Program-made: the position numbers and the translations under genes
Assembly: GCA_003345555.1 (NCBI GenBank)
Contig: PRDJ01000052.1
Span: 1-24,507, forward strand
Reading direction: 5' to 3'
Length of the DNA stretch: 24,507 nucleotides
DNA from: Candidatus Thorarchaeota archaeon
GTDB taxonomy: Archaea; Asgardarchaeota; Thorarchaeia; Thorarchaeales; Thorarchaeaceae
Shown here: positions 9,392 through 24,489 of the stretch, one piece after another
Numbering within the stretch: position 1 is the stretch's first letter
How the letters are laid out: the number at the start of each line of letters is the position of its first letter
Notes under the pieces: model-generated
What the model was told of the DNA's origin: nothing
The model's database searches: none
Seen by the model: only the letters and a program-made list of their open reading frames with translations

Positions 9392-10777
9392 TTACTCTAG
9401 TGTGCCGCCTTCCATGTAGTAGCTGAACAGCTCACGGAAGTCATTGATAGCAGTCACAAGTTCCTTTCTTGTCGTTCCCTTTGATCTCATGAACCAGCTC
9501 TGCTTCAAGGCAGAGGGTCCGCTGTGCAGATTCACAAGTTGGGTTGCTTCGTTAATGAGCTGAACCAGCTCTGGTATCTTGGGTAATCCCAGCAGAAGCA
9601 AGAGCTTCACGATAGGCTCTGGACCCTGGTGCTGAACATAGCATGGTGTAATTGCGGCACCAGGAGCTATGTACTTGTCGAGAGCCTCCTTGATGTGCAT
9701 CCCATACTCTGCCTTCGAAATATGCCTCGGCCCATCGAAGACGTAGTAGACACTCTCGGCGTTCGGGGTGTCTCCGACGTCAGCGTAAGAGCACTGAGTT
9801 ACTGCGTAATCAATCATTGTTCGCAGCTGTCTTGGCATGCTGCCTGCATCGGGAATCAGTCCAATATCATTGTAGAGAGCGGGCACAACGACTGGATCCA
9901 GCTTCCTTGCATAATCGGCGAGATCTGTTGTTGGAAAGACGTCCTTTTCAGGCTCATAGACTCCCGGTGATAGCATTGCTTCAATCACATCAAGCGCGAG
10001 AGGGTTGACGAGTTCCACAAATGCTTGCTCTGTTCGAGTCTCAAGCTCACTGCTTCCGCCATCGACAGTACTCGGAACCATCTGCTCTATTGACTGAACG
10101 TTGGCGACATCGACGTCAAGTTCCTTTGCCAAGTAGTCGACACTGTCTCCCCTTCTCCATTGAAGGATTCTCTTGAGCATGGTTCTATTGCTGAGGAGTA
10201 TTGTAAGATCTGCACCACGTTCCTGTAGCTGAGCTCGAAGAAGTTTCGAGACAGCCCATATCGAGTTGAGAGCTTCACTGGACTGTCCCTCAAATGGCAG
10301 CACACCTATGACGTATACGAAGATTCGTCTTCCCTCTTCTTCCTGAAACTTCTGCTTGAGAAGCTCGATGATGGCCGGCGTACCACCACAACCAGTACCA
10401 CCGCCCAGACTGGTGAATATGCAAAATCCGGAGACTCCTTCGAAGCCCAAGTTTGTGAGCTGGTCGAAGATGATGTCCTTCGATTCCATGACAGCATTAT
10501 AACCGTCCATGAATCGACCACCGACACCGATTTCGCTTTCTCCATAGAGGAGCGTGTGCTCCTTTGGTATTCCGTATTTCTGACGGACCTTTGTGAGATC
10601 TGAGCGGTCCGTATTCAAGAGCAGATATCCACGAACTCGAGAAGGTAACTTCTTGTCTTCGCTAGCTTTCAGGTACGATCCAACTATATTAGAGCCACAT
10701 TCACCAATCCCAATTGCGAACATCTCCGCAGCTTTACCCAATTCCTCGTCTGCGCCTTTTCCCTTGGTCTTCTGCAT
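9392..10777 (-). CDS. Divergent tubulin/FtsZ-superfamily GTPase (CetZ/FtsZ-like, not canonical FtsZ)
   Basis: T1 IGIGECGSNI, T2 NTD, T3 GVGG, T4 signature LGGGTGCGGTP (10405-10382), T5 VLPFEGQ, T6 LSN, H7 LVN and T7 TTDLADY. AGGAG RBS before ATG. Confidence 0.92.
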   Translation of the reverse strand: MQKTKGKGADEELGKAAEMFAIGIGECGSNIVGSYLKASEDKKLPSRVRGYLLLNTDRSDLTKVRQKYGIPKEHTLLYGESEIGVGGRFMDGYNAVMESKDIIFDQLTNLGFEGVSGFCIFTSLGGGTGCGGTPAIIELLKQKFQEEEGRRIFVYVIGVLPFEGQSSEALNSIWAVSKLLRAQLQERGADLTILLSNRTMLKRILQWRRGDSVDYLAKELDVDVANVQSIEQMVPSTVDGGSSELETRTEQAFVELVNPLALDVIEAMLSPGVYEPEKDVFPTTDLADYARKLDPVVVPALYNDIGLIPDAGSMPRQLRTMIDYAVTQCSYADVGDTPNAESVYYVFDGPRHISKAEYGMHIKEALDKYIAPGAAITPCYVQHQGPEPIVKLLLLLGLPKIPELVQLINEATQLVNLHSGPSALKQSWFMRSKGTTRKELVTAINDFRELFSYYMEGGTLE

Positions 10778-10795
10778 TCGCCTATTCTCCTGTAG

Positions 10796-13486
10796 CTATC
10801 CTCTCTTTTCCAACATTGTTGCCACGAGCTCTTTTACAGCCCAAGACAAGTAAGAACTGATATCATCCCTCGAGTAAGTCTCCTTGATCTTCTTGATGGC
10901 CTCCTCAACGAACTTCTGCCGCTGGTCAGAGCTAGCACCAGGGCTGAAACCAGCCATGTACATCTTCAGGCTCTTGTGCCATTCATCCATCTTCTCCGCC
11001 TTCTCAATCCAACCCTTGCGGAGTTCCTTGATCTGGTTGAAAAGCTTCAGAGCGTCGTCAAGCATACGAGCCGACGCCAAGTCTGACTCCATCTTCTTCA
11101 TCTTATCAAGTGGGTAGATGAGGTTACTGAAATCTTTCGGATGTTTTTCATACACTCGTTCGATGGTCGAATAGTACTTGCTGCGTTCTTTGAGAGTTTT
11201 CTCGTACTCCTGACGGTCCTTGTTCGAAATGCTCTTGATCATTGCTATCATTTGTTCCTGAATATTGGCGAGTGTCAGGCAGACTTCGAGTGACTCATAG
11301 ACATGCTTTGGTTGCGATGCGAGCTGGTCCGGAACCTTTTCGATGAGGGCCTTGAGATTGCTGACCGAATCTCCCATGCCCTGCTCTTCGAAGGTTGCGA
11401 TTGCGTTGTTGATTTGAACGTACGCTTCAGAAGCTCGGCTCTTAATCTTCTGCAGAACAACCGGAGAAGTCGTTAGCTTCTGTAATCTGTCAAAGGATTC
11501 GGCCGCTCCCTCAAGTTCCTGAGGGGGTTCGGATCTTAGGTCCGCCAAGATCTGAAGTTCCTTGTCGAGATCCACACCTATGCTTCTGGCCTTACTGAAT
11601 GACGTTTCAAGATCTGTAACCTTGACCATAAGCAGCTCGATGACCTTTGAGGAGATTTTTTGCTCGTAAACCTCAATCATCTTGCGTGCGACCGCAGGTA
11701 AGCTGAAGACGGTCTCTGCAACAACACCAATGTTGTTGAGTTCCGCGATTCCCTCTTGTACCTCTGGAGGAATCTCAACACCCGATCCCATCAGCTTTGC
11801 AGCTGCAAGTCTGATTTTGACACCAAGTCTGTACCTGAGGTTCTCAAGCGCCTCCTTTGCCATAACCAGAATTGTGTCCTTGATGTTCCTCATCTCAGAC
11901 CTGATTTCTGCGAATTCCTTGAGTTTCTGCAGTTTCTGCTTGCCCTCCTCCAGCCTCTCAGTGATTGGCACGAATATCTCCGCGTAGACTGGCTTTATTG
12001 TCTGGAGGTCCTCGATGATTGCTTCTATCTCCTGATTGCAGGCGTCACGGAACGTGGCCACTCCACTGTCCACGGCTTGCTTAAGTTGACCCAAAGCCTG
12101 AAGCAGGTATAACGTGCTTCCGCTTTGCAGTTCTTCGACTTTGGGTGCCTTCTTGCTAAGCTGGGCATAGTCCAGAACACGGTCTGCAGAAGTTGCCAGT
12201 TCATTGAACCGTGCTAGGTACGACCGTATCTTCTCGGTGATGAACTTGCGCTGTTCATCCTCCATCGTCCTAGCTTTCAGATAGATCCTTATCATTGCGT
12301 CAATATCTGCCTTGTCCAATTGAGACCTTGAGTCGGAAAGGAATTGCTTCACGGCTGGCAAGTCTTTGATGCCCGCATCTGCAGGAACCTCAGCTGCCTT
12401 GTCTATTTGTTGTAGAAGATCCTCAGTCCTGTCCTTCAGTGCGATTCTAACCTGGCCTGTCCACTCCGCCATTCTTCCCAGAGACGATAGCAGACTCGAA
12501 ATATCCAGATTCTCAATTCCTGCGACAGGTGCTTGTGGGATTATGTCTGCGGTAGTAGGGATGCCGCCTTCTACAATCTTGGTCGTCACTTCATGCTTTA
12601 TGTTGATTATCCTGTCCCTAAGCATGTTGGCCATTTGAGTCCTGACAGACTGAAGTTGATTATCGAGGCTCATCAAAGTTGTCAGATTAGTTGCCTTGCC
12701 GGCATCTCTTGCGAGGACACGAAGCTTCTGGCTGAAGTCCATGGGCAGCTCGAGACCGAGCTTTGATGCAGTCTCAACAGAAACAGAGAGAGAATCGATG
12801 TCTGAAACAAGGTGGACTGAAAGCATGCGACTAACTTCGTCCTTTCTGCTGTCGAGATAAGTCCGCTCTGCTTTCAGTCTCTCCAAGAGAAGAATCAGAT
12901 TCATGACTGAGAGGCTGGAAATATCGTCGGTGGATGTAGTCGTAGCAACCTCGCCTGTGTCGATACTGACATGCCTCTGGTAAGTCTCTACAGTGCGCTT
13001 GTTTTCGTCGAGTAAGGTCCTGGTCTCTCTAGAGATTTCTTGATGCAAAGCTACAGAGCGCTTGGAGAAGGTCTCGGCAAAGCCATATAGTTTCTGGAAG
13101 TCTTCGGGATTACCAGCTGCAATCGATGGAAAACTCAAGGTGGCAATCGCCTTGGCCTCTTCTGGCTTGATTGCTTGCAGTTTGGGTAGGATCGCTATGA
13201 CATCCCGCTGCTCCTTCTTGAGAAGGTCAGCGAAATCCCTGACAGTCCTCATGAAGTAATCTTGGAGTTCGCTAGCGACTTTCTCAACTTGTGCCTTCAC
13301 TTTACCCTTCTTCAGCATTCCAGCTGTTGCGGCTTCATTCTCGAGCTTGCTAAAGTTGGCAAAGATGTCATAGAGGTGACGCGTTTGCCTTTCTGTCTGC
13401 TCCTCCAGTGAAGGGTTGACTGAAATGAGCATGGCTTTCATTTCTGCGAGCTTGTCGAGCTGTAGACGCCATTGGTGACTATCCAA
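10796..13486 (-). CDS. 896-aa all-alpha helical-repeat / coiled-coil rod protein
   Basis: Long uninterrupted ORF rich in L/E/K/A with heptad-like spacing. No TM segment or NTPase motif. TTG start with GGAGG at 13498-13494. Ends 18 nt before the tubulin-like gene. Confidence 0.85.
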   Translation of the reverse strand: MDSHQWRLQLDKLAEMKAMLISVNPSLEEQTERQTRHLYDIFANFSKLENEAATAGMLKKGKVKAQVEKVASELQDYFMRTVRDFADLLKKEQRDVIAILPKLQAIKPEEAKAIATLSFPSIAAGNPEDFQKLYGFAETFSKRSVALHQEISRETRTLLDENKRTVETYQRHVSIDTGEVATTTSTDDISSLSVMNLILLLERLKAERTYLDSRKDEVSRMLSVHLVSDIDSLSVSVETASKLGLELPMDFSQKLRVLARDAGKATNLTTLMSLDNQLQSVRTQMANMLRDRIINIKHEVTTKIVEGGIPTTADIIPQAPVAGIENLDISSLLSSLGRMAEWTGQVRIALKDRTEDLLQQIDKAAEVPADAGIKDLPAVKQFLSDSRSQLDKADIDAMIRIYLKARTMEDEQRKFITEKIRSYLARFNELATSADRVLDYAQLSKKAPKVEELQSGSTLYLLQALGQLKQAVDSGVATFRDACNQEIEAIIEDLQTIKPVYAEIFVPITERLEEGKQKLQKLKEFAEIRSEMRNIKDTILVMAKEALENLRYRLGVKIRLAAAKLMGSGVEIPPEVQEGIAELNNIGVVAETVFSLPAVARKMIEVYEQKISSKVIELLMVKVTDLETSFSKARSIGVDLDKELQILADLRSEPPQELEGAAESFDRLQKLTTSPVVLQKIKSRASEAYVQINNAIATFEEQGMGDSVSNLKALIEKVPDQLASQPKHVYESLEVCLTLANIQEQMIAMIKSISNKDRQEYEKTLKERSKYYSTIERVYEKHPKDFSNLIYPLDKMKKMESDLASARMLDDALKLFNQIKELRKGWIEKAEKMDEWHKSLKMYMAGFSPGASSDQRQKFVEEAIKKIKETYSRDDISSYLSWAVKELVATMLEKRG

Positions 13487-14538: not shown

Positions 14539-16020
14539 TTAAGGTGTCCATCCAGTCATCTCGATTCTGACTATGTGGCTTAACAGAAGAGCTCCCGGCG
14601 TCACAAGTACGAGCGGGTAGCTCGGGGGTAGCAACAGTTCACCGTTGACCCAGCCTGCCACCACTACGACGTTGGTCGTCATGTCACTAAGCAGCTGATC
14701 AGATGTGAATGTGACGTTGTTGCCAAGCGAGTCGTGCAAAGTCACATTATATCCCAAGACCGCAAGTGTGGTGTTGAATTCGTAGTGGGGCGTGTTGTTG
14801 CCACCGTCGAATGATGCGACTATATCCCATAACGTGGCACCCCAGTACACATCTGGCCCGACTGTGATTGCATGACGATGATGCAAACAGGACGCCATAG
14901 AGTAGTAATCGCTGTGAGGCATCCTCCACGATTGCACACCCTGCAGAGTAAGTAACCAGGGCGTAACCTCGTCTATGAGAGTGATGTTTACGACAAGCTT
15001 GGCCCACCAAGAGCCGTCGGTTACGTACCCATCCTTGTTGAGTATGGCCATTCTTAGAGGTCCAGAACCGCTTATCAGAGCAGTCCCGTTTGCTTCGTAA
15101 GCCACGATGAGCGTACAGTTCACTATTCCGACTGAGCTGCCGTCCGTCTTATTGTATCCTAGGAAACGCCCTTCCACATTAGTCCGGTTGAACACGGTCT
15201 CATATGCATCCGAGCCAATCACTCTGAGACTGTAGTTGGCGGGAAGGGTGCCGCTAAGTATCAACAAATCGAGCACTGCGACTCCGGTGTAGTTGGCTAT
15301 ACCTGTGATGTTTCCACTGGATTTTTTGTATCCGCCCCATCCTGAGATTGCAGGCAGGCTCATGAGCTTGCTCATACTGTAGTTTGTCAAGTGGCCTCCG
15401 GCCTTGACCGAGAGGACGATGGGCGGCCTGTTTGTGACTTGGATCATATCTACGTTAGAGACACACTTTGGTCCAGCTGCCCCGGTGTAGAAATCTGACT
15501 CAAACACGCCTGCCCCGTCTGTATTATTGAAGTAGCCATCTAGTGGGAGGAACATGATTCTGAAGCCATCGGTCCAGGTTGGTACCTCTGTACCATTGTA
15601 CGAGAACGCCAAGACCATGTCGCCTTGGAGGCTGTATCCGGTTGAGTTGGGGTAGACGTTTAGATAGCTGAAGGTCTGATTGTAACCATCTGTGGCGTTG
15701 ATGAATACCAGCTGGTTGGTGGCCATGCCGTCGGCAAGCTCGACCAGGTCTGCTATCTTTACTCCCTTATACTCGCCCGATCCGCGAACGTTGCCGTATG
15801 AGTTCTGGAAAGACGCATTCCTCGTGATTACATTCATGTTTTTCATATCACTGAGCGTCACGACGTGAATTGACCCGTCACTGCTAACAACTCGCACGGA
15901 AGGACCTGTGGACGATGTTGGTTGTTGCATCAGAATAAGAACTGCCGTGGCAGTGCCAGCTATCACGATGACGACTGCTAGTACTGCGTAAAGCTTGGTC
16001 TGGCTTGTGCCTGAGCTCAC
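14539..16020 (-). CDS. Membrane-anchored surface glycoprotein with three tandem molybdopterin-oxidoreductase (SUOX/MsrP)-fold-like repeats
   Basis: N-terminal TM/signal (LYAVLAVVIVIAGTATAVLIL). Three repeats of Y.GV.I.DL...DGY/DAY...LA...NG....GP.R....K.V..I. 19 N-x-S/T sequons counted. Confidence 0.7.
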   Translation of the reverse strand: MSSGTSQTKLYAVLAVVIVIAGTATAVLILMQQPTSSTGPSVRVVSSDGSIHVVTLSDMKNMNVITRNASFQNSYGNVRGSGEYKGVKIADLVELADGMATNQLVFINATDGYNQTFSYLNVYPNSTGYSLQGDMVLAFSYNGTEVPTWTDGFRIMFLPLDGYFNNTDGAGVFESDFYTGAAGPKCVSNVDMIQVTNRPPIVLSVKAGGHLTNYSMSKLMSLPAISGWGGYKKSSGNITGIANYTGVAVLDLLILSGTLPANYSLRVIGSDAYETVFNRTNVEGRFLGYNKTDGSSVGIVNCTLIVAYEANGTALISGSGPLRMAILNKDGYVTDGSWWAKLVVNITLIDEVTPWLLTLQGVQSWRMPHSDYYSMASCLHHRHAITVGPDVYWGATLWDIVASFDGGNNTPHYEFNTTLAVLGYNVTLHDSLGNNVTFTSDQLLSDMTTNVVVVAGWVNGELLLPPSYPLVLVTPGALLLSHIVRIEMTGWTP

Positions 16021-18004: not shown

Positions 18005-20182
<2,178 letters not shown>

Positions 20183-22397: not shown

Positions 22398-22775
22398 TCA
22401 GGGTCGCTTCTCCGCTTTCTTCTCGCCCTGAGTCTTGCTCTCGTAATCTTCAATCGCCTTTTGAAGAGCCTCGGCCGCAAGATTGCTGCAGTGCATTTTG
22501 TGAGGAGGCAGGCCATCAAGCGCGTCAGCTACCATCTTCCTAGTGATGGTTTTTGCTTCTTCAATTGTCATGCCCATTGCCATTTGCGTGGTCATTGATG
22601 AGGTGGCTATGGCTGCAACGCATCCGAAGGTCTCGACCTTGATGTCGACAATCTTGTCATCCTTGACTTTTATGAAGAGCCTGAGCATGTCGCCACATAC
22701 TGGATTACCCACTGTTCCCACACCATCAGCATCATCGATCCGACCCATGTTCTGCGGGTTCTTGAATTCCCGCAT
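22398..22775 (-). CDS. iscU: IscU/NifU-type Fe-S cluster scaffold (start probably upstream of 22775)
   Basis: NPQNMG, GNPVCGD, FGC..AIA.SS, LDGLPPHKMHCS.LA. All three Cys, the Asp and the His are retained. Confidence 0.95.
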   Translation of the reverse strand: MREFKNPQNMGRIDDADGVGTVGNPVCGDMLRLFIKVKDDKIVDIKVETFGCVAAIATSSMTTQMAMGMTIEEAKTITRKMVADALDGLPPHKMHCSNLAAEALQKAIEDYESKTQGEKKAEKRP

Positions 22776-22859
22776 GACCTTGTCAGTGTACGTTTCTATT
22801 CCTCCAGTAGCTCACACCAAAGCGACTCGGCAATTCCTAGACAGTGACTTCACAAATCG

Positions 22860-24086
22860 CTACCCTAAACTCTGGTCGTCGTCCGAGGAGCTTTCCTGTT
22901 CTTCATGTTTGGCCTCGGACTTGGCCATGAAGTATTCACCCCTCTTGAGCGGGCTGAATTGACGTAAACGGTTAACTATCGGTACTAGCGCCTCGACAAA
23001 CCCATCAATCTGCTCCTTTGTGTTGAAGCGGGATAATGAGACTCTCACTGACCCGTGAGCGATTTCAGGTCTCAAACCGATTGCTTTCAGCACGTGACTC
23101 CCCTGAAGAGTCTTCGAAGAGCATGCGGAGCCCGTTGAGATTGCGTACCCATCCATATCGAGTTCGACGAGCATAGATTCTCCCTCGATTTGTTCCACAA
23201 CCATGCTGAACAGATTTGGTAGCCTCTTCACCGGATGTCCTGTGACTCTGTAATCTTCGAGAGTGGTACTCATCTTCTGCTCTACGTAATGCCTCAACGA
23301 AAGCAGATTGTCCGACTCGTCTTTTCCCCATATCTTCACGGCCTCTGCGAAGCCAACAGCTCCGGGGATGTTCTGGACTCCCGGTCTGAGTCTTCGCTCC
23401 TCGTCCCCGCCCTCCATGATCCTCTCAACTCTCGTGCCCTTCCTCACGAAAAGCGCACCAATTCCTTTGGGACCATGAATCACATGAGCGTCCATTGTCA
23501 TCAGATTGATTGGAACTGCCTGTATGTCGACTGGTATTTTCAGGTAGCTCTGAGTAGCGTCGGTATGAAAGATCACACCACGGGCTGAGGTCATACGTGC
23601 TATTTCTTCGATTGGCTGAACTGTTCCTATCTCACCGTTAGCGTGTTGAATTGATACAAGAATCGTGTCCTTTCTAATCTTCTTCTTCAGCTGACCGACA
23701 TCTACAAGGCCGTTTTCATCCACGTCCAGGATGTCGAGTTCAAACCCGTCCTTCTCAAGAGCCTTACAGGCCTGCAGCACTGACATGACTTCAATGGAGC
23801 TTGTGATTATGTGCTTCCCATGGTCCTTGTTGGCCAGAGCGGCGCCCTGAATAGCCAAGTTGTTCGACTCAGTTTGCCCTGACGTGAAGACAATTGTCAA
23901 TGGATCTGCATTGATGGATTCAGCAATAACCTTCCTCGCATTCTCGAGTCCTTTCATGGCTGCAACGTCACGGGAATGGCCAAGTTCCATCCCTGCGGTT
24001 CCGTAACTTTCCCTGAAGTAGGGTAACATCGCTTCTATGACTCGCTCATCCACTCTTGTGGAGCTGGCATTGTCGAGAAAAGCCAA
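22860..24086 (-). CDS. iscS: IscS/NifS-like cysteine desulfurase homolog with a degenerate PLP site (probable pseudo-desulfurase)
   Basis: LDNASST, FTSG.TESNNLA, FHTDATQ, HGPKGIGAL, STGSACSS and SVRVSLSR. TTG start at 24086 one base after the HTH stop, with GGAGG RBS; the ORF-track start at 24155 overlaps the HTH gene. Confidence 0.9.
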   Translation of the reverse strand: MAFLDNASSTRVDERVIEAMLPYFRESYGTAGMELGHSRDVAAMKGLENARKVIAESINADPLTIVFTSGQTESNNLAIQGAALANKDHGKHIITSSIEVMSVLQACKALEKDGFELDILDVDENGLVDVGQLKKKIRKDTILVSIQHANGEIGTVQPIEEIARMTSARGVIFHTDATQSYLKIPVDIQAVPINLMTMDAHVIHGPKGIGALFVRKGTRVERIMEGGDEERRLRPGVQNIPGAVGFAEAVKIWGKDESDNLLSLRHYVEQKMSTTLEDYRVTGHPVKRLPNLFSMVVEQIEGESMLVELDMDGYAISTGSACSSKTLQGSHVLKAIGLRPEIAHGSVRVSLSRFNTKEQIDGFVEALVPIVNRLRQFSPLKRGEYFMAKSEAKHEEQESSSDDDQSLG

Positions 24087-24087
24087 G

Positions 24088-24489
24088 TTATCTTCCTCCG
24101 TCTTTGCATGCTCGACACTCCTCCTCCACTTGTTTGCACTGTCCTCGGTGGACATCGCACATGATTCCTGCGTCTCTCATGGCTTTGATGAGTCGATTTA
24201 CTTCCTTCGTCATGAGTTGGTATACGTATTTGTCCGGCTGTCTAGCCTGCCACGCCTTTATCATGGAGTCGACTGATTTCTCAATTTCTGGGATGAAAGA
24301 ACTCGGTATCTCGATAACATCGCCCCGAGATCTCTTGGACTTGGCTAGCTTGTACTGGGTGACCGCCGGTTCAGTAACTCCAAGAATGCCTGCTATATCC
24401 TTCTGGGGTATGCCCTTCTTTATCATCAAGCGCGCCATCTCTCTTCGAAGAGATGGGAGAACATACCATACCTCCAACTCCTGGGGCAT
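24088..24489 (-). CDS. Archaeal HTH transcriptional regulator (COG2522-like) with a C-terminal Cys/His cluster
   Basis: PQELEVWYVLPSLRREMA, HTH IPQKDIAGILGVTEPAVTQY and C-terminal CDVH...C......CRAC. The frame is open to the window edge, so the start could be slightly further upstream. Confidence 0.85.
   Translation of the reverse strand: MPQELEVWYVLPSLRREMARLMIKKGIPQKDIAGILGVTEPAVTQYKLAKSKRSRGDVIEIPSSFIPEIEKSVDSMIKAWQARQPDKYVYQLMTKEVNRLIKAMRDAGIMCDVHRGQCKQVEEECRACKDGGR

Follow-up and report, generated by a model that had tools for sequence, protein, structure and literature searches.

The final 2.1 kb of a contig from a Thorarchaeota archaeon are filled by three co-directional genes on the minus strand, which code for a helix-turn-helix protein with a C-terminal cysteine motif (HTH/Cys protein, P0003), a homologue of the cysteine desulfurase IscS (P0001, here called IscS*) and an IscU scaffold protein for the assembly of iron-sulfur (Fe-S) clusters (P0002). 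The window, i.e. the whole stretch of 24,507 nucleotides analysed in this work, is the entire contig C52 of a metagenome-assembled genome (MAG) composed of 82 contigs. By its sequence IscS* is a desulfurase homologue from which the pyridoxal phosphate (PLP) site has gone and in which the cysteine loop has stayed. Its residues are numbered on the 431 amino acid open reading frame (ORF); numbers for the 408 amino acid form are obtained by subtracting 23. The genes, and the positions of IscS* discussed below, are the following.

22398 to 22793, minus strand: IscU/MisU scaffold, P0002 (called ORF from ATG 22775 to 22398, 125 amino acids)
22860 to 24155, minus strand: IscS*, IscS/MisS-like protein without PLP site, P0001 (longest ORF from ATG 24155, 431 amino acids)
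24088 to 24489, minus strand: HTH protein P0003 with C-terminal C-x2-H-x10-C-x2-C, candidate metal- or Fe-S-sensing autoregulator
23121 to 23123, minus strand: TGC, Cys345 in STGSACSS, the mobile-loop persulfide or ligand cysteine (E. coli C328), present in 56/56 clade members
23376 to 23414, minus strand: loop EGGDEERRLRPGV, residues 248-260, in place of the canonical HGGGHERGMRSGT (from the alignment)
23481 to 23483, minus strand: GTG, Val225 at the position of the Schiff-base lysine (E. coli K206; codon read directly)
23490 to 23492, minus strand: Asp222 for the phosphate-binding serine (E. coli S203; from the alignment)
23787 to 23789, minus strand: GTC, Val123 at the position of the PLP ring-stacking histidine (E. 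coli H104; codon read directly)

The start of IscS* is probably the TTG codon at 24086-24084, which gives a protein of 408 amino acids in agreement with the database gene call. This codon is found 1 nt past the stop of the P0003 gene and has a GGAGG 7-8 nt ahead of it. An earlier note on this DNA, made from the sequence alone, had placed the end of the locus at 24086, the same probable true start.

The active site of IscS*

For the residue calls P0001 and 56 full-length relatives, forming one clade, were aligned to E. coli IscS, and the alignments with solved structures agree. None of the 56 clade members has a lysine at the K206 position, which is occupied by His (36), Leu (11), Arg (8) or, in a single case, Val. 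The H104 position reads Val in 24 members, Thr in another 24, His in six, and Ser and Arg in one each. Asp222 is found in 54 of the 56 and in 0% of 119 canonical relatives. In the loop spanning residues 248-260, Asp251, Glu252, Arg254, Arg257, Pro258 and Gly259 are each present in 56/56, and position 260 (E. coli T243) is Val in 38 and Ile in 14; residues 248-254 of this loop are modelled by AlphaFold2 (AF2) with a predicted local distance difference test (pLDDT) value below 50.

Further changes with respect to E. coli IscS are T243V, N155G, A75Q and N35T, the last one within the change of GNP to GTA, while HGGGHE has become EGGDEE (G234D and H235E). Counted over the set of PLP contacts, four are altered (H104V, N155G, S203D, T243V) and four retained (T76, D180, Q183, H205). 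IscS* also retains R354 (its Arg371), C328 and the E311 of the EGES segment, and C328, R354, H205, D180, T76 and E311 are conserved in 100% of the 56 clade members. The clade has 14 fixed residues that are all but missing from the 119 canonical relatives, and eight of them fall within three active-site segments (53-63, 222 and 251-252). The commonest reading of the clade at the old lysine site is D-A-H-H-I-H. As judged from this alignment, the centre of the old pocket drifts and the former phosphate region is rebuilt with acidic residues. The substitutions listed in the earlier note (K206V, H104V, S203D, T243V, N155G, A75Q, GNP to GTA, HGGGHE to EGGDEE) hold without exception by codons and alignment, and so do the retentions it named (D180, Q183, R354, the C328 loop and EGES). 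Its picture of a dismantled PLP site next to an invariant cysteine loop, substrate arginine and EGES segment is borne out by the 56-member alignment.

Outside the pocket IscS* appears, by sequence and model, as a normal type I cysteine desulfurase fold. It matches PF00266, the aminotransferase class V fold, over residues 26-385 (E 3.5e-69), and scores 344-349 bits against the solved IscS proteins, with 344 bits for PDB 4eb5. The AF2 model (pLDDT 85) superimposes on A. fulgidus IscS with a template modelling (TM) score of 0.94 and on E. coli IscS and NFS1 with 0.89-0.92. In NCBIfam the protein falls below every equivalog cut-off (TIGR03402, 412.5 vs 530.75; TIGR02006, 360 vs 643; NF010611, 366 vs 548). 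Taking the characters of a type I desulfurase one by one, fold, loop cysteine and substrate arginine are present, the Schiff-base lysine is absent and the PLP-contact set is incomplete.

Conservation of the lineage

A protein search returned about 60 clusters with the IscS* pattern at 57-100% identity, followed by a sharp fall to 52% or less. All of these clusters derive from Asgard MAGs; the named sources are mostly Thorarchaeota, with a few Promethearchaeota, Hermodarchaeota and Lokiarchaeota. When a library of 50%-identity representatives was searched, the whole lineage fell into one cluster of 546 bits, ahead of the next match at 394. Among 301 sampled genomes of the phylum, it is carried by 24 of the 76 that belong to the family of the window (genera g1, g2, g3, g10, g12, g14, g15 and g16), and no occurrence outside this family was found.

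IscS* is conserved and under strong purifying selection. When compared with the nearest relative (87% identical), IscS* has a ratio of nonsynonymous to synonymous substitution rates (dN/dS) of 0.07, IscU of 0.03 and P0003 of 0.05; pairs further apart show saturation at synonymous sites and an amino-acid change of 10-20%. Since the pattern is common to the whole clade and purifying selection acts on it, it is beyond chance. A decaying gene or an assembly error, in favour of which the origin from an 82-contig MAG could be quoted, may practically be dismissed, as the earlier note had argued: the ORF is intact, the 87%-identical relative has identical residues, the pattern runs across the roughly 60 clusters, and conservation and the dN/dS value refute it.

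Origin of the lysine loss

Trees were calculated by maximum likelihood on 90 rows and approximately unbiased (AU) tests were run on a subset of 36 rows. The IscS* lineage is a starred clade with a long stem (0.58). It groups with the Asgard protein P0065/P0070, which keeps both the lysine and the histidine (Shimodaira-Hasegawa-like approximate likelihood ratio, SH-aLRT, 96). The locus of this sister (L052, P0065 type) has the identical order regulator-IscS-IscU, and its homologue of P0003 is 31% identical and carries the C-x2-H...C-x2-C motif. As the Lys- and His-keeping sister has the same operon, the Fe-S context is older than the loss, and the tree and gene order indicate that the PLP site was lost within a regulator-IscS-IscU operon that was already in place.

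The A. fulgidus type, in which Asp replaces the lysine, is a separate starred clade. Joining it with the IscS* lineage is rejected (AU p 0.014), as is a single clade of all Lys-less rows (AU p 0.0013), both groups having been named after viewing the tree; on these trees the lysine loss of IscS* is independent of the Lys-to-Asp type. Membership of IscS* in the A. fulgidus lineage was considered and is rejected, given the separate starred clades, the AU p of 0.014 and the presence of both types in one genome. Independence from a further Lys-less group, the Lys-to-Thr/His-to-Asp family described below, is not established, the one-clade arrangement of the two giving an AU p of 0.29. The "probably independent" loss of the earlier note therefore stands against the A. 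fulgidus type (AU p 0.014) and does not stand against the Lys-to-Thr/His-to-Asp family (AU p 0.29).

In the family at large, among the 150 nearest 50%-identity representatives, 16 have no lysine and show ten different residues in its place, and at least 8 steps are needed on the 90-row tree to account for its change. Judged on these sequences the loss of the lysine is recurrent, not rare, in the IscS/NifS family, and the concept of a Lys-less IscS is for this reason already known.

Relationship to described systems

In the A. fulgidus IscS2-IscU system (PDB 4eb5, 4eb7, 4hvk; D199K mutant 4r5f) the type I fold, the loss of the lysine, the loop cysteine and the IscU partner are all shared with IscS*. 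A. fulgidus IscS is reported to have no desulfurase activity and to ligate with its cysteine a [2Fe-2S] cluster on IscU (PMC7585200; bioRxiv 10.1101/2024.03.20.586028). IscS1 of M. acetivorans is reported to be without the lysine as well (PMC7585200; bioRxiv 10.1101/2024.03.20.586028). A. fulgidus IscS and IscS* match with 344 bits and about 44-50% identity. The A. fulgidus protein has Asp at the lysine site and keeps H104, S203, T243, GNP and GGGQE, all of which are lost in IscS*. Conversely, IscS* keeps the substrate arginine, which has been lost by the A. fulgidus-type paralogue of its own genome. The earlier note had called IscS* more extreme than A. fulgidus IscS, and in the alignment it is, because A. 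fulgidus and the D-type paralogue of the same genome both retain H104, S203 and T243.

The minimal ISC systems (MIS, MisS-MisU; IscSU1-3 of M. acetivorans) resemble the locus in being two-gene IscS-IscU units without HscAB, Fdx and IscA (PMC7585200; PMC13066941). By definition MIS has a working desulfurase, and M. acetivorans IscS2 is active, whereas IscS* has by its sequence no PLP site. Unlike MIS, IscS*-IscU is preceded by a dedicated HTH/Cys gene, and no SMS or SUF partner was found in the genus.

The nearest large group is the Lys-to-Thr/His-to-Asp family (about 48-50% identity). Like IscS* it is without the lysine and the histidine, keeps the cysteine loop and has a one-residue insertion after the GNP motif; its replacement residues are different and it forms a separate starred clade. 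Its motifs are SAHTIHGPKG, IEDFPV, YAVATSE and DGGFQEF (P0067-P0123; L053, L054, L056). By their source names its members come from Thermoplasmatota, Chloroflexota, Methermicoccus, Halanaerobiales, Heimdallarchaeota and Deltaproteobacteria, and in Asgard loci the gene adjoins a longer IscU of about 215 amino acids. No description of this family was found in the literature searched, nor anything specific on an Asgard IscS or on a survey of Lys-less desulfurases.

With canonical IscS/NFS1/NifS (E. coli 1p3w, 3lvl; human 5wkp, 8rme) IscS* shares the fold, the cysteine loop, EGES and the C-terminal helix; the PLP lysine, the stacking histidine and three more PLP contacts of these enzymes are absent from it.

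The IscU partner and Fe-S genes of the genome

The IscU gene product (P0002) matches PF01592 with E 1e-42 and TIGR03419 with 179 bits, and the family match extends to 22793. The cluster ligands Cys27, Asp29, Cys52, His95 and Cys96 on the 125 amino acid ORF (E. coli C37, D39, C63, H105 and C106) are present, and all five are invariant across 15 IscU sequences of the clade. The pairing of IscS* with an intact IscU, as claimed in the earlier note, is thus confirmed by an adjacent gene with all cluster ligands kept. The conserved N-terminus YTDKV runs upstream of the ATG at 22775 as far as 22793-22791, where this DNA has ACG and its relatives begin with ATG and the sequence M-Y-[ST]-D-K-V. A GGAGG is found 7 nt ahead of this ACG, and a start at ATG 22775 would drop the conserved N-terminal Tyr. 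The ACG could be a non-ATG start, the mark of a truncated IscU or a base error of the MAG. Next to IscU are genes for an enoyl-CoA hydratase and a C69-type peptidase, and inspection of the neighbour genes on this side found no HscAB, Fdx or IscA gene near IscS*-IscU.

In most loci of the clade IscU adjoins IscS*. In genus g12 the short IscU is located 10-15 kb off on the same contig in 3/5 checked genomes, with at least one IscU match in 5/5. A complex prediction that paired residues 24-410 of IscS* (alignment of 41 rows) with IscU (15 rows) had a score of 0.13 (mark 0.32) and was counted neither way.

The genome, which is 93% complete, codes for four desulfurase-like proteins, three of which are without the lysine: IscS* (Val), the IscS of contig C80 (Asp) and a SufS-like protein on contig C30. 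The loci outside the window are the following.

L001:1462-2829, contig C26: SufS-like, canonical (LEHHS, SVHKMCGPTG, RSGWHCAAP; from the sequence)
L002:1465-2676, contig C30: SufS-like, without PLP lysine (FFSGNVGLMGP; from the sequence)
L003:636-3241, contig C80: second Fe-S locus with TusA-like, DsrE-like, A. fulgidus-type IscS, and IscU with a fused domain of about 140 amino acids at its C-terminus

Among the desulfurase-family proteins of the genome, only that of C26 has an active site that is complete. A search for another canonical desulfurase or SufS, proposed in the earlier note, thus yielded exactly one. The IscS of C80 (SSNDIYGPKG) has 451 bits to 4eb5 and is a true A. fulgidus-type paralogue. 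Both IscU genes of the genome stand beside a Lys-less IscS. In this genome and three others of the genus neither SufB/D (PF01458) nor an A-type carrier (PF01521) was found, and no match to SufC passed the cut-off; as the genomes are 83-93% complete, this falls short of proving an absence. No SufBCD, SufE or SufU scaffold was found in the genome for the C26 SufS-like protein. The recognisable Fe-S scaffolds of the organism, as far as sequence matches tell, are the two IscU proteins, each with a Lys-less IscS. A clean complementarity of SufB and IscS* across genera was looked for and rejected: g1, g12, g14 and g15 have IscS*, mostly without SufB, g2, g3, g10 and g16 have the two together, and in many genomes of g9 neither is seen.

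The regulator P0003 and its candidate operator

A homologue of P0003 is present directly upstream of IscS* in 25/25 loci of the clade and in the Lys-keeping sister locus. The P0003 family counts about 116 clusters, nearly all from Thorarchaeota, with an HTH and an invariant N-terminus (MPQE.EVWY), Cys111, His114, Cys125 and Cys128. P0003 has no Pfam match above cut-off (HTH_23 and HTH_Crp_2 are sub-threshold) and no PDB structure matches the fold of its AF2 model (pLDDT 81) at an E value up to 0.001, the matches being only predicted archaeal HTH regulators of the cro/C1 type.

The promoter of P0003 lies beyond the contig end (24507). In 24 related loci the palindrome TTCAC-N4-GTGAA stands, once or twice, behind a TATA-like CTTATATGG or CTTATTAG, the ensemble being located 60-120 nt upstream of the P0003-like gene (L028-L052); in the Lys-keeping sister locus the palindrome reads TTAAC-AATA-GTTAA. 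The sequence TTMACWATNGTKAA occurs six times in the genome of the window, where about 0.3 are expected and the reversed control has none, and is over-represented in 40/41 genomes of the family. The sites are the following.

C3:2223
C24:25792
C35:53089
C55:1369
C73:21148
C77:10082

The genes behind the palindrome encode an FTR1 iron permease, an HMA P-type ATPase, three AhpC/TSA peroxiredoxins, a TspO-like protein and one unknown protein. Two copies matching at 12 of 14 positions (TTAACGATAGTT) are placed on either side of the TATA box of the C80 operon. From this distribution we infer a candidate iron/redox regulon which would include both IscS-IscU operons. P0003 is the likely autoregulator; it would bind the palindrome and would in this be an analogue, not a homologue, of IscR. 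Like IscR (Rrf2) it is the first gene of the operon, combines an HTH with a site of the three-Cys/one-His type and has a putative palindromic operator at its promoter; it differs in having no match to the Rrf2-type winged helix and in being almost confined to Thorarchaeota.

As a separate observation, several relatives (L030, L035, L039, L044, L045 and L051) have conserved a sirtuin-like gene (GAGVSRESNVPTFRG) next to the operon and divergent from it; the window ends short of this position.

Proposed role of IscS*

The reading that we favour, and regard as somewhat probable from sequence and from the A. fulgidus analogy, is that IscS* would be a non-catalytic pseudo-desulfurase, without PLP binding, which still serves IscU in Fe-S assembly. 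The analysis itself establishes the sequence anatomy, its conservation throughout the clade, the purifying selection, the operon and the operator motif. We infer for this reading the loss of PLP binding, the contact with IscU, the role of the cysteine as ligand or relay, the sulfur source and the binding of the palindrome by P0003. IscS* would be a folded IscS/MisS protein of the dimer type that no longer binds PLP and would thus not cleave cysteine, with Asp222, Asp251 and Glu252 filling the former phosphate pocket. Cys345 may act as the fourth ligand holding a nascent [2Fe-2S] cluster on IscU, as in A. fulgidus IscS-IscU, or alternatively carry a persulfide made by another protein. Possible sources of the sulfur are sulfide, either environmental or cellular, and the canonical SufS-like enzyme. 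The genes of the HTH/Cys regulator, IscS* and IscU constitute one unit.

Several points weigh against this reading. Binding to IscU and the ligand role are drawn by analogy. The A. fulgidus iscS2U2 genes failed to complement an E. coli mutant, also when sulfide was present, which leaves the cellular role of the precedent itself unproven (bioRxiv 10.1101/2024.03.20.586028). The IscU of the window has no standard start codon for its conserved N-terminus, and in g12 IscS* and IscU are no longer adjacent, whereas the regulator gene always is. Finally, the invariant R354, H205 and D180, which are Arg371, His224 and Asp199 of IscS*, together with the new invariant acidic loop suggest that the pocket may still bind something.

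The main alternative, itself unlikely, is that IscS* would be a dedicated persulfide relay, in which Cys345 takes a persulfide from the C26 SufS-like enzyme or from a carrier of the TusA/DsrE type and passes it to IscU. The invariant cysteine loop would suit this, as would the single remaining canonical SufS-like protein, for which no SufBCD/SufE/SufU scaffold was found, and the joining of the other IscS-IscU operon (C80) to tusA and dsrE genes. Against it, no linkage of the IscS* gene with that of the SufS-like protein was seen, and the literature searched held no case of transfer from a type II to a type I desulfurase. Were the relay true, the system would still depend on cysteine and on PLP in trans. 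The title of a candidate "PLP-independent Fe-S assembly system" given to the locus in the earlier note is for the same reason overstated or at least open: the canonical C26 SufS-like enzyme kept by the genome could feed persulfide, so independence from PLP is not supported for the system as a whole.

A re-purposed pocket is improbable. It would be formed by Asp222, His224, often His225, His227, Asp251, Glu252, Glu253 and Arg371 and would bind Fe(II), sulfide/polysulfide or cysteine for a PLP-free delivery to IscU. The 14 clade-specific residues, with eight in active-site segments, speak for it, and so do the D-A-H-H-I-H found at the old lysine site in most members and the substrate arginine, kept in 56/56 and lost in the A. 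fulgidus-type paralogue. However, the lysine site (H/L/R/V) and the histidine site (V/T/H) are both variable, and with its central positions variable a filled pocket fits better than a precise ligand site; the acidic residues may merely replace the charge of the phosphate, and the loop is modelled at low confidence. The boldest version of this idea, to which we give the same low credence, takes the pocket as rebuilt into an acidic/His site (Asp222, His224/225/227, Asp251-Glu252-Glu253, Arg371) binding Fe(II), sulfide or polysulfide, and IscS*-IscU as a self-sufficient Fe-S synthase independent of cysteine and PLP, with its own Fe-S-sensing regulator. If so, it would be housekeeping Fe-S machinery in a genus in which SufBC was not found.

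Still less probable is a function outside Fe-S assembly, with IscS* as partner or co-sensor of P0003 or as a sulfur carrier for tRNA thiolation or cofactor synthesis. In favour of this, no neighbour other than P0003 is kept in 25/25 loci, and in the window its stop is separated by 1 nt from the start of IscS*; in g12 IscU is found elsewhere, and E. coli IscS has many acceptors (3lvj is an IscS-TusA complex). On the other side, a regulator-first operon is a common pattern (E. coli iscR-iscSUA), the genes are arranged alike in the Lys-keeping sister operon, and a short IscU co-occurs in all checked genomes.

It is very unlikely that IscS* is still a PLP enzyme, holding PLP non-covalently or via another lysine such as that of GPKG. 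T76, D180, Q183 and H205 are kept, but five other PLP contacts are gone, acidic residues stand in the phosphate site, and loss of the lysine alone is reported to abolish the activity of A. fulgidus IscS (PMC7585200). The GPKG lysine is no compensating novelty, because it is equally conserved in canonical enzymes.

Other genes of the window

Three further observations concern the remainder of the window.

18050 to 20182, plus strand: full NAD-dependent DNA ligase of the bacterial LigA type (adenylation, OB, Zn finger, HhH and BRCT) in an Asgard archaeon
9392 to 13486, minus strand: tubulin/FtsZ-family GTPase (461 amino acids, PF00091 E 1e-19) directly after an 896 amino acid ORF without Pfam match
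14539 to 16020, minus strand: ORF of 493 amino acids whose only match, to the molybdopterin-binding oxidoreductase domain, is weak and partial (PF00174, E 1e-7)

Implications

IscS* belongs to a known category, the Lys-less IscS partner of IscU, of which it is a more radical, independent variant with a new candidate regulator and regulon. The sulfur source and the working of minimal IscS-IscU systems in strict anaerobes are an open question in Fe-S biogenesis, and the only studied Lys-less IscS is that of A. fulgidus, whose cellular role is unproven. The IscS* lineage adds a second case, independent of the first, in which the PLP site was lost more thoroughly, and for it a close Lys-keeping sister operon is available for comparison. 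It makes testable the loading of IscU without a cognate desulfurase, the use of an IscS body as ligand or chaperone, and feeding by a type II SufS. A candidate archaeal regulator of iron or Fe-S, together with its operator, is pointed out as well. As loss of the lysine is common in the IscS/NifS family, automatic labels of "cysteine desulfurase" overstate cysteine-dependent sulfur mobilisation in anaerobes.

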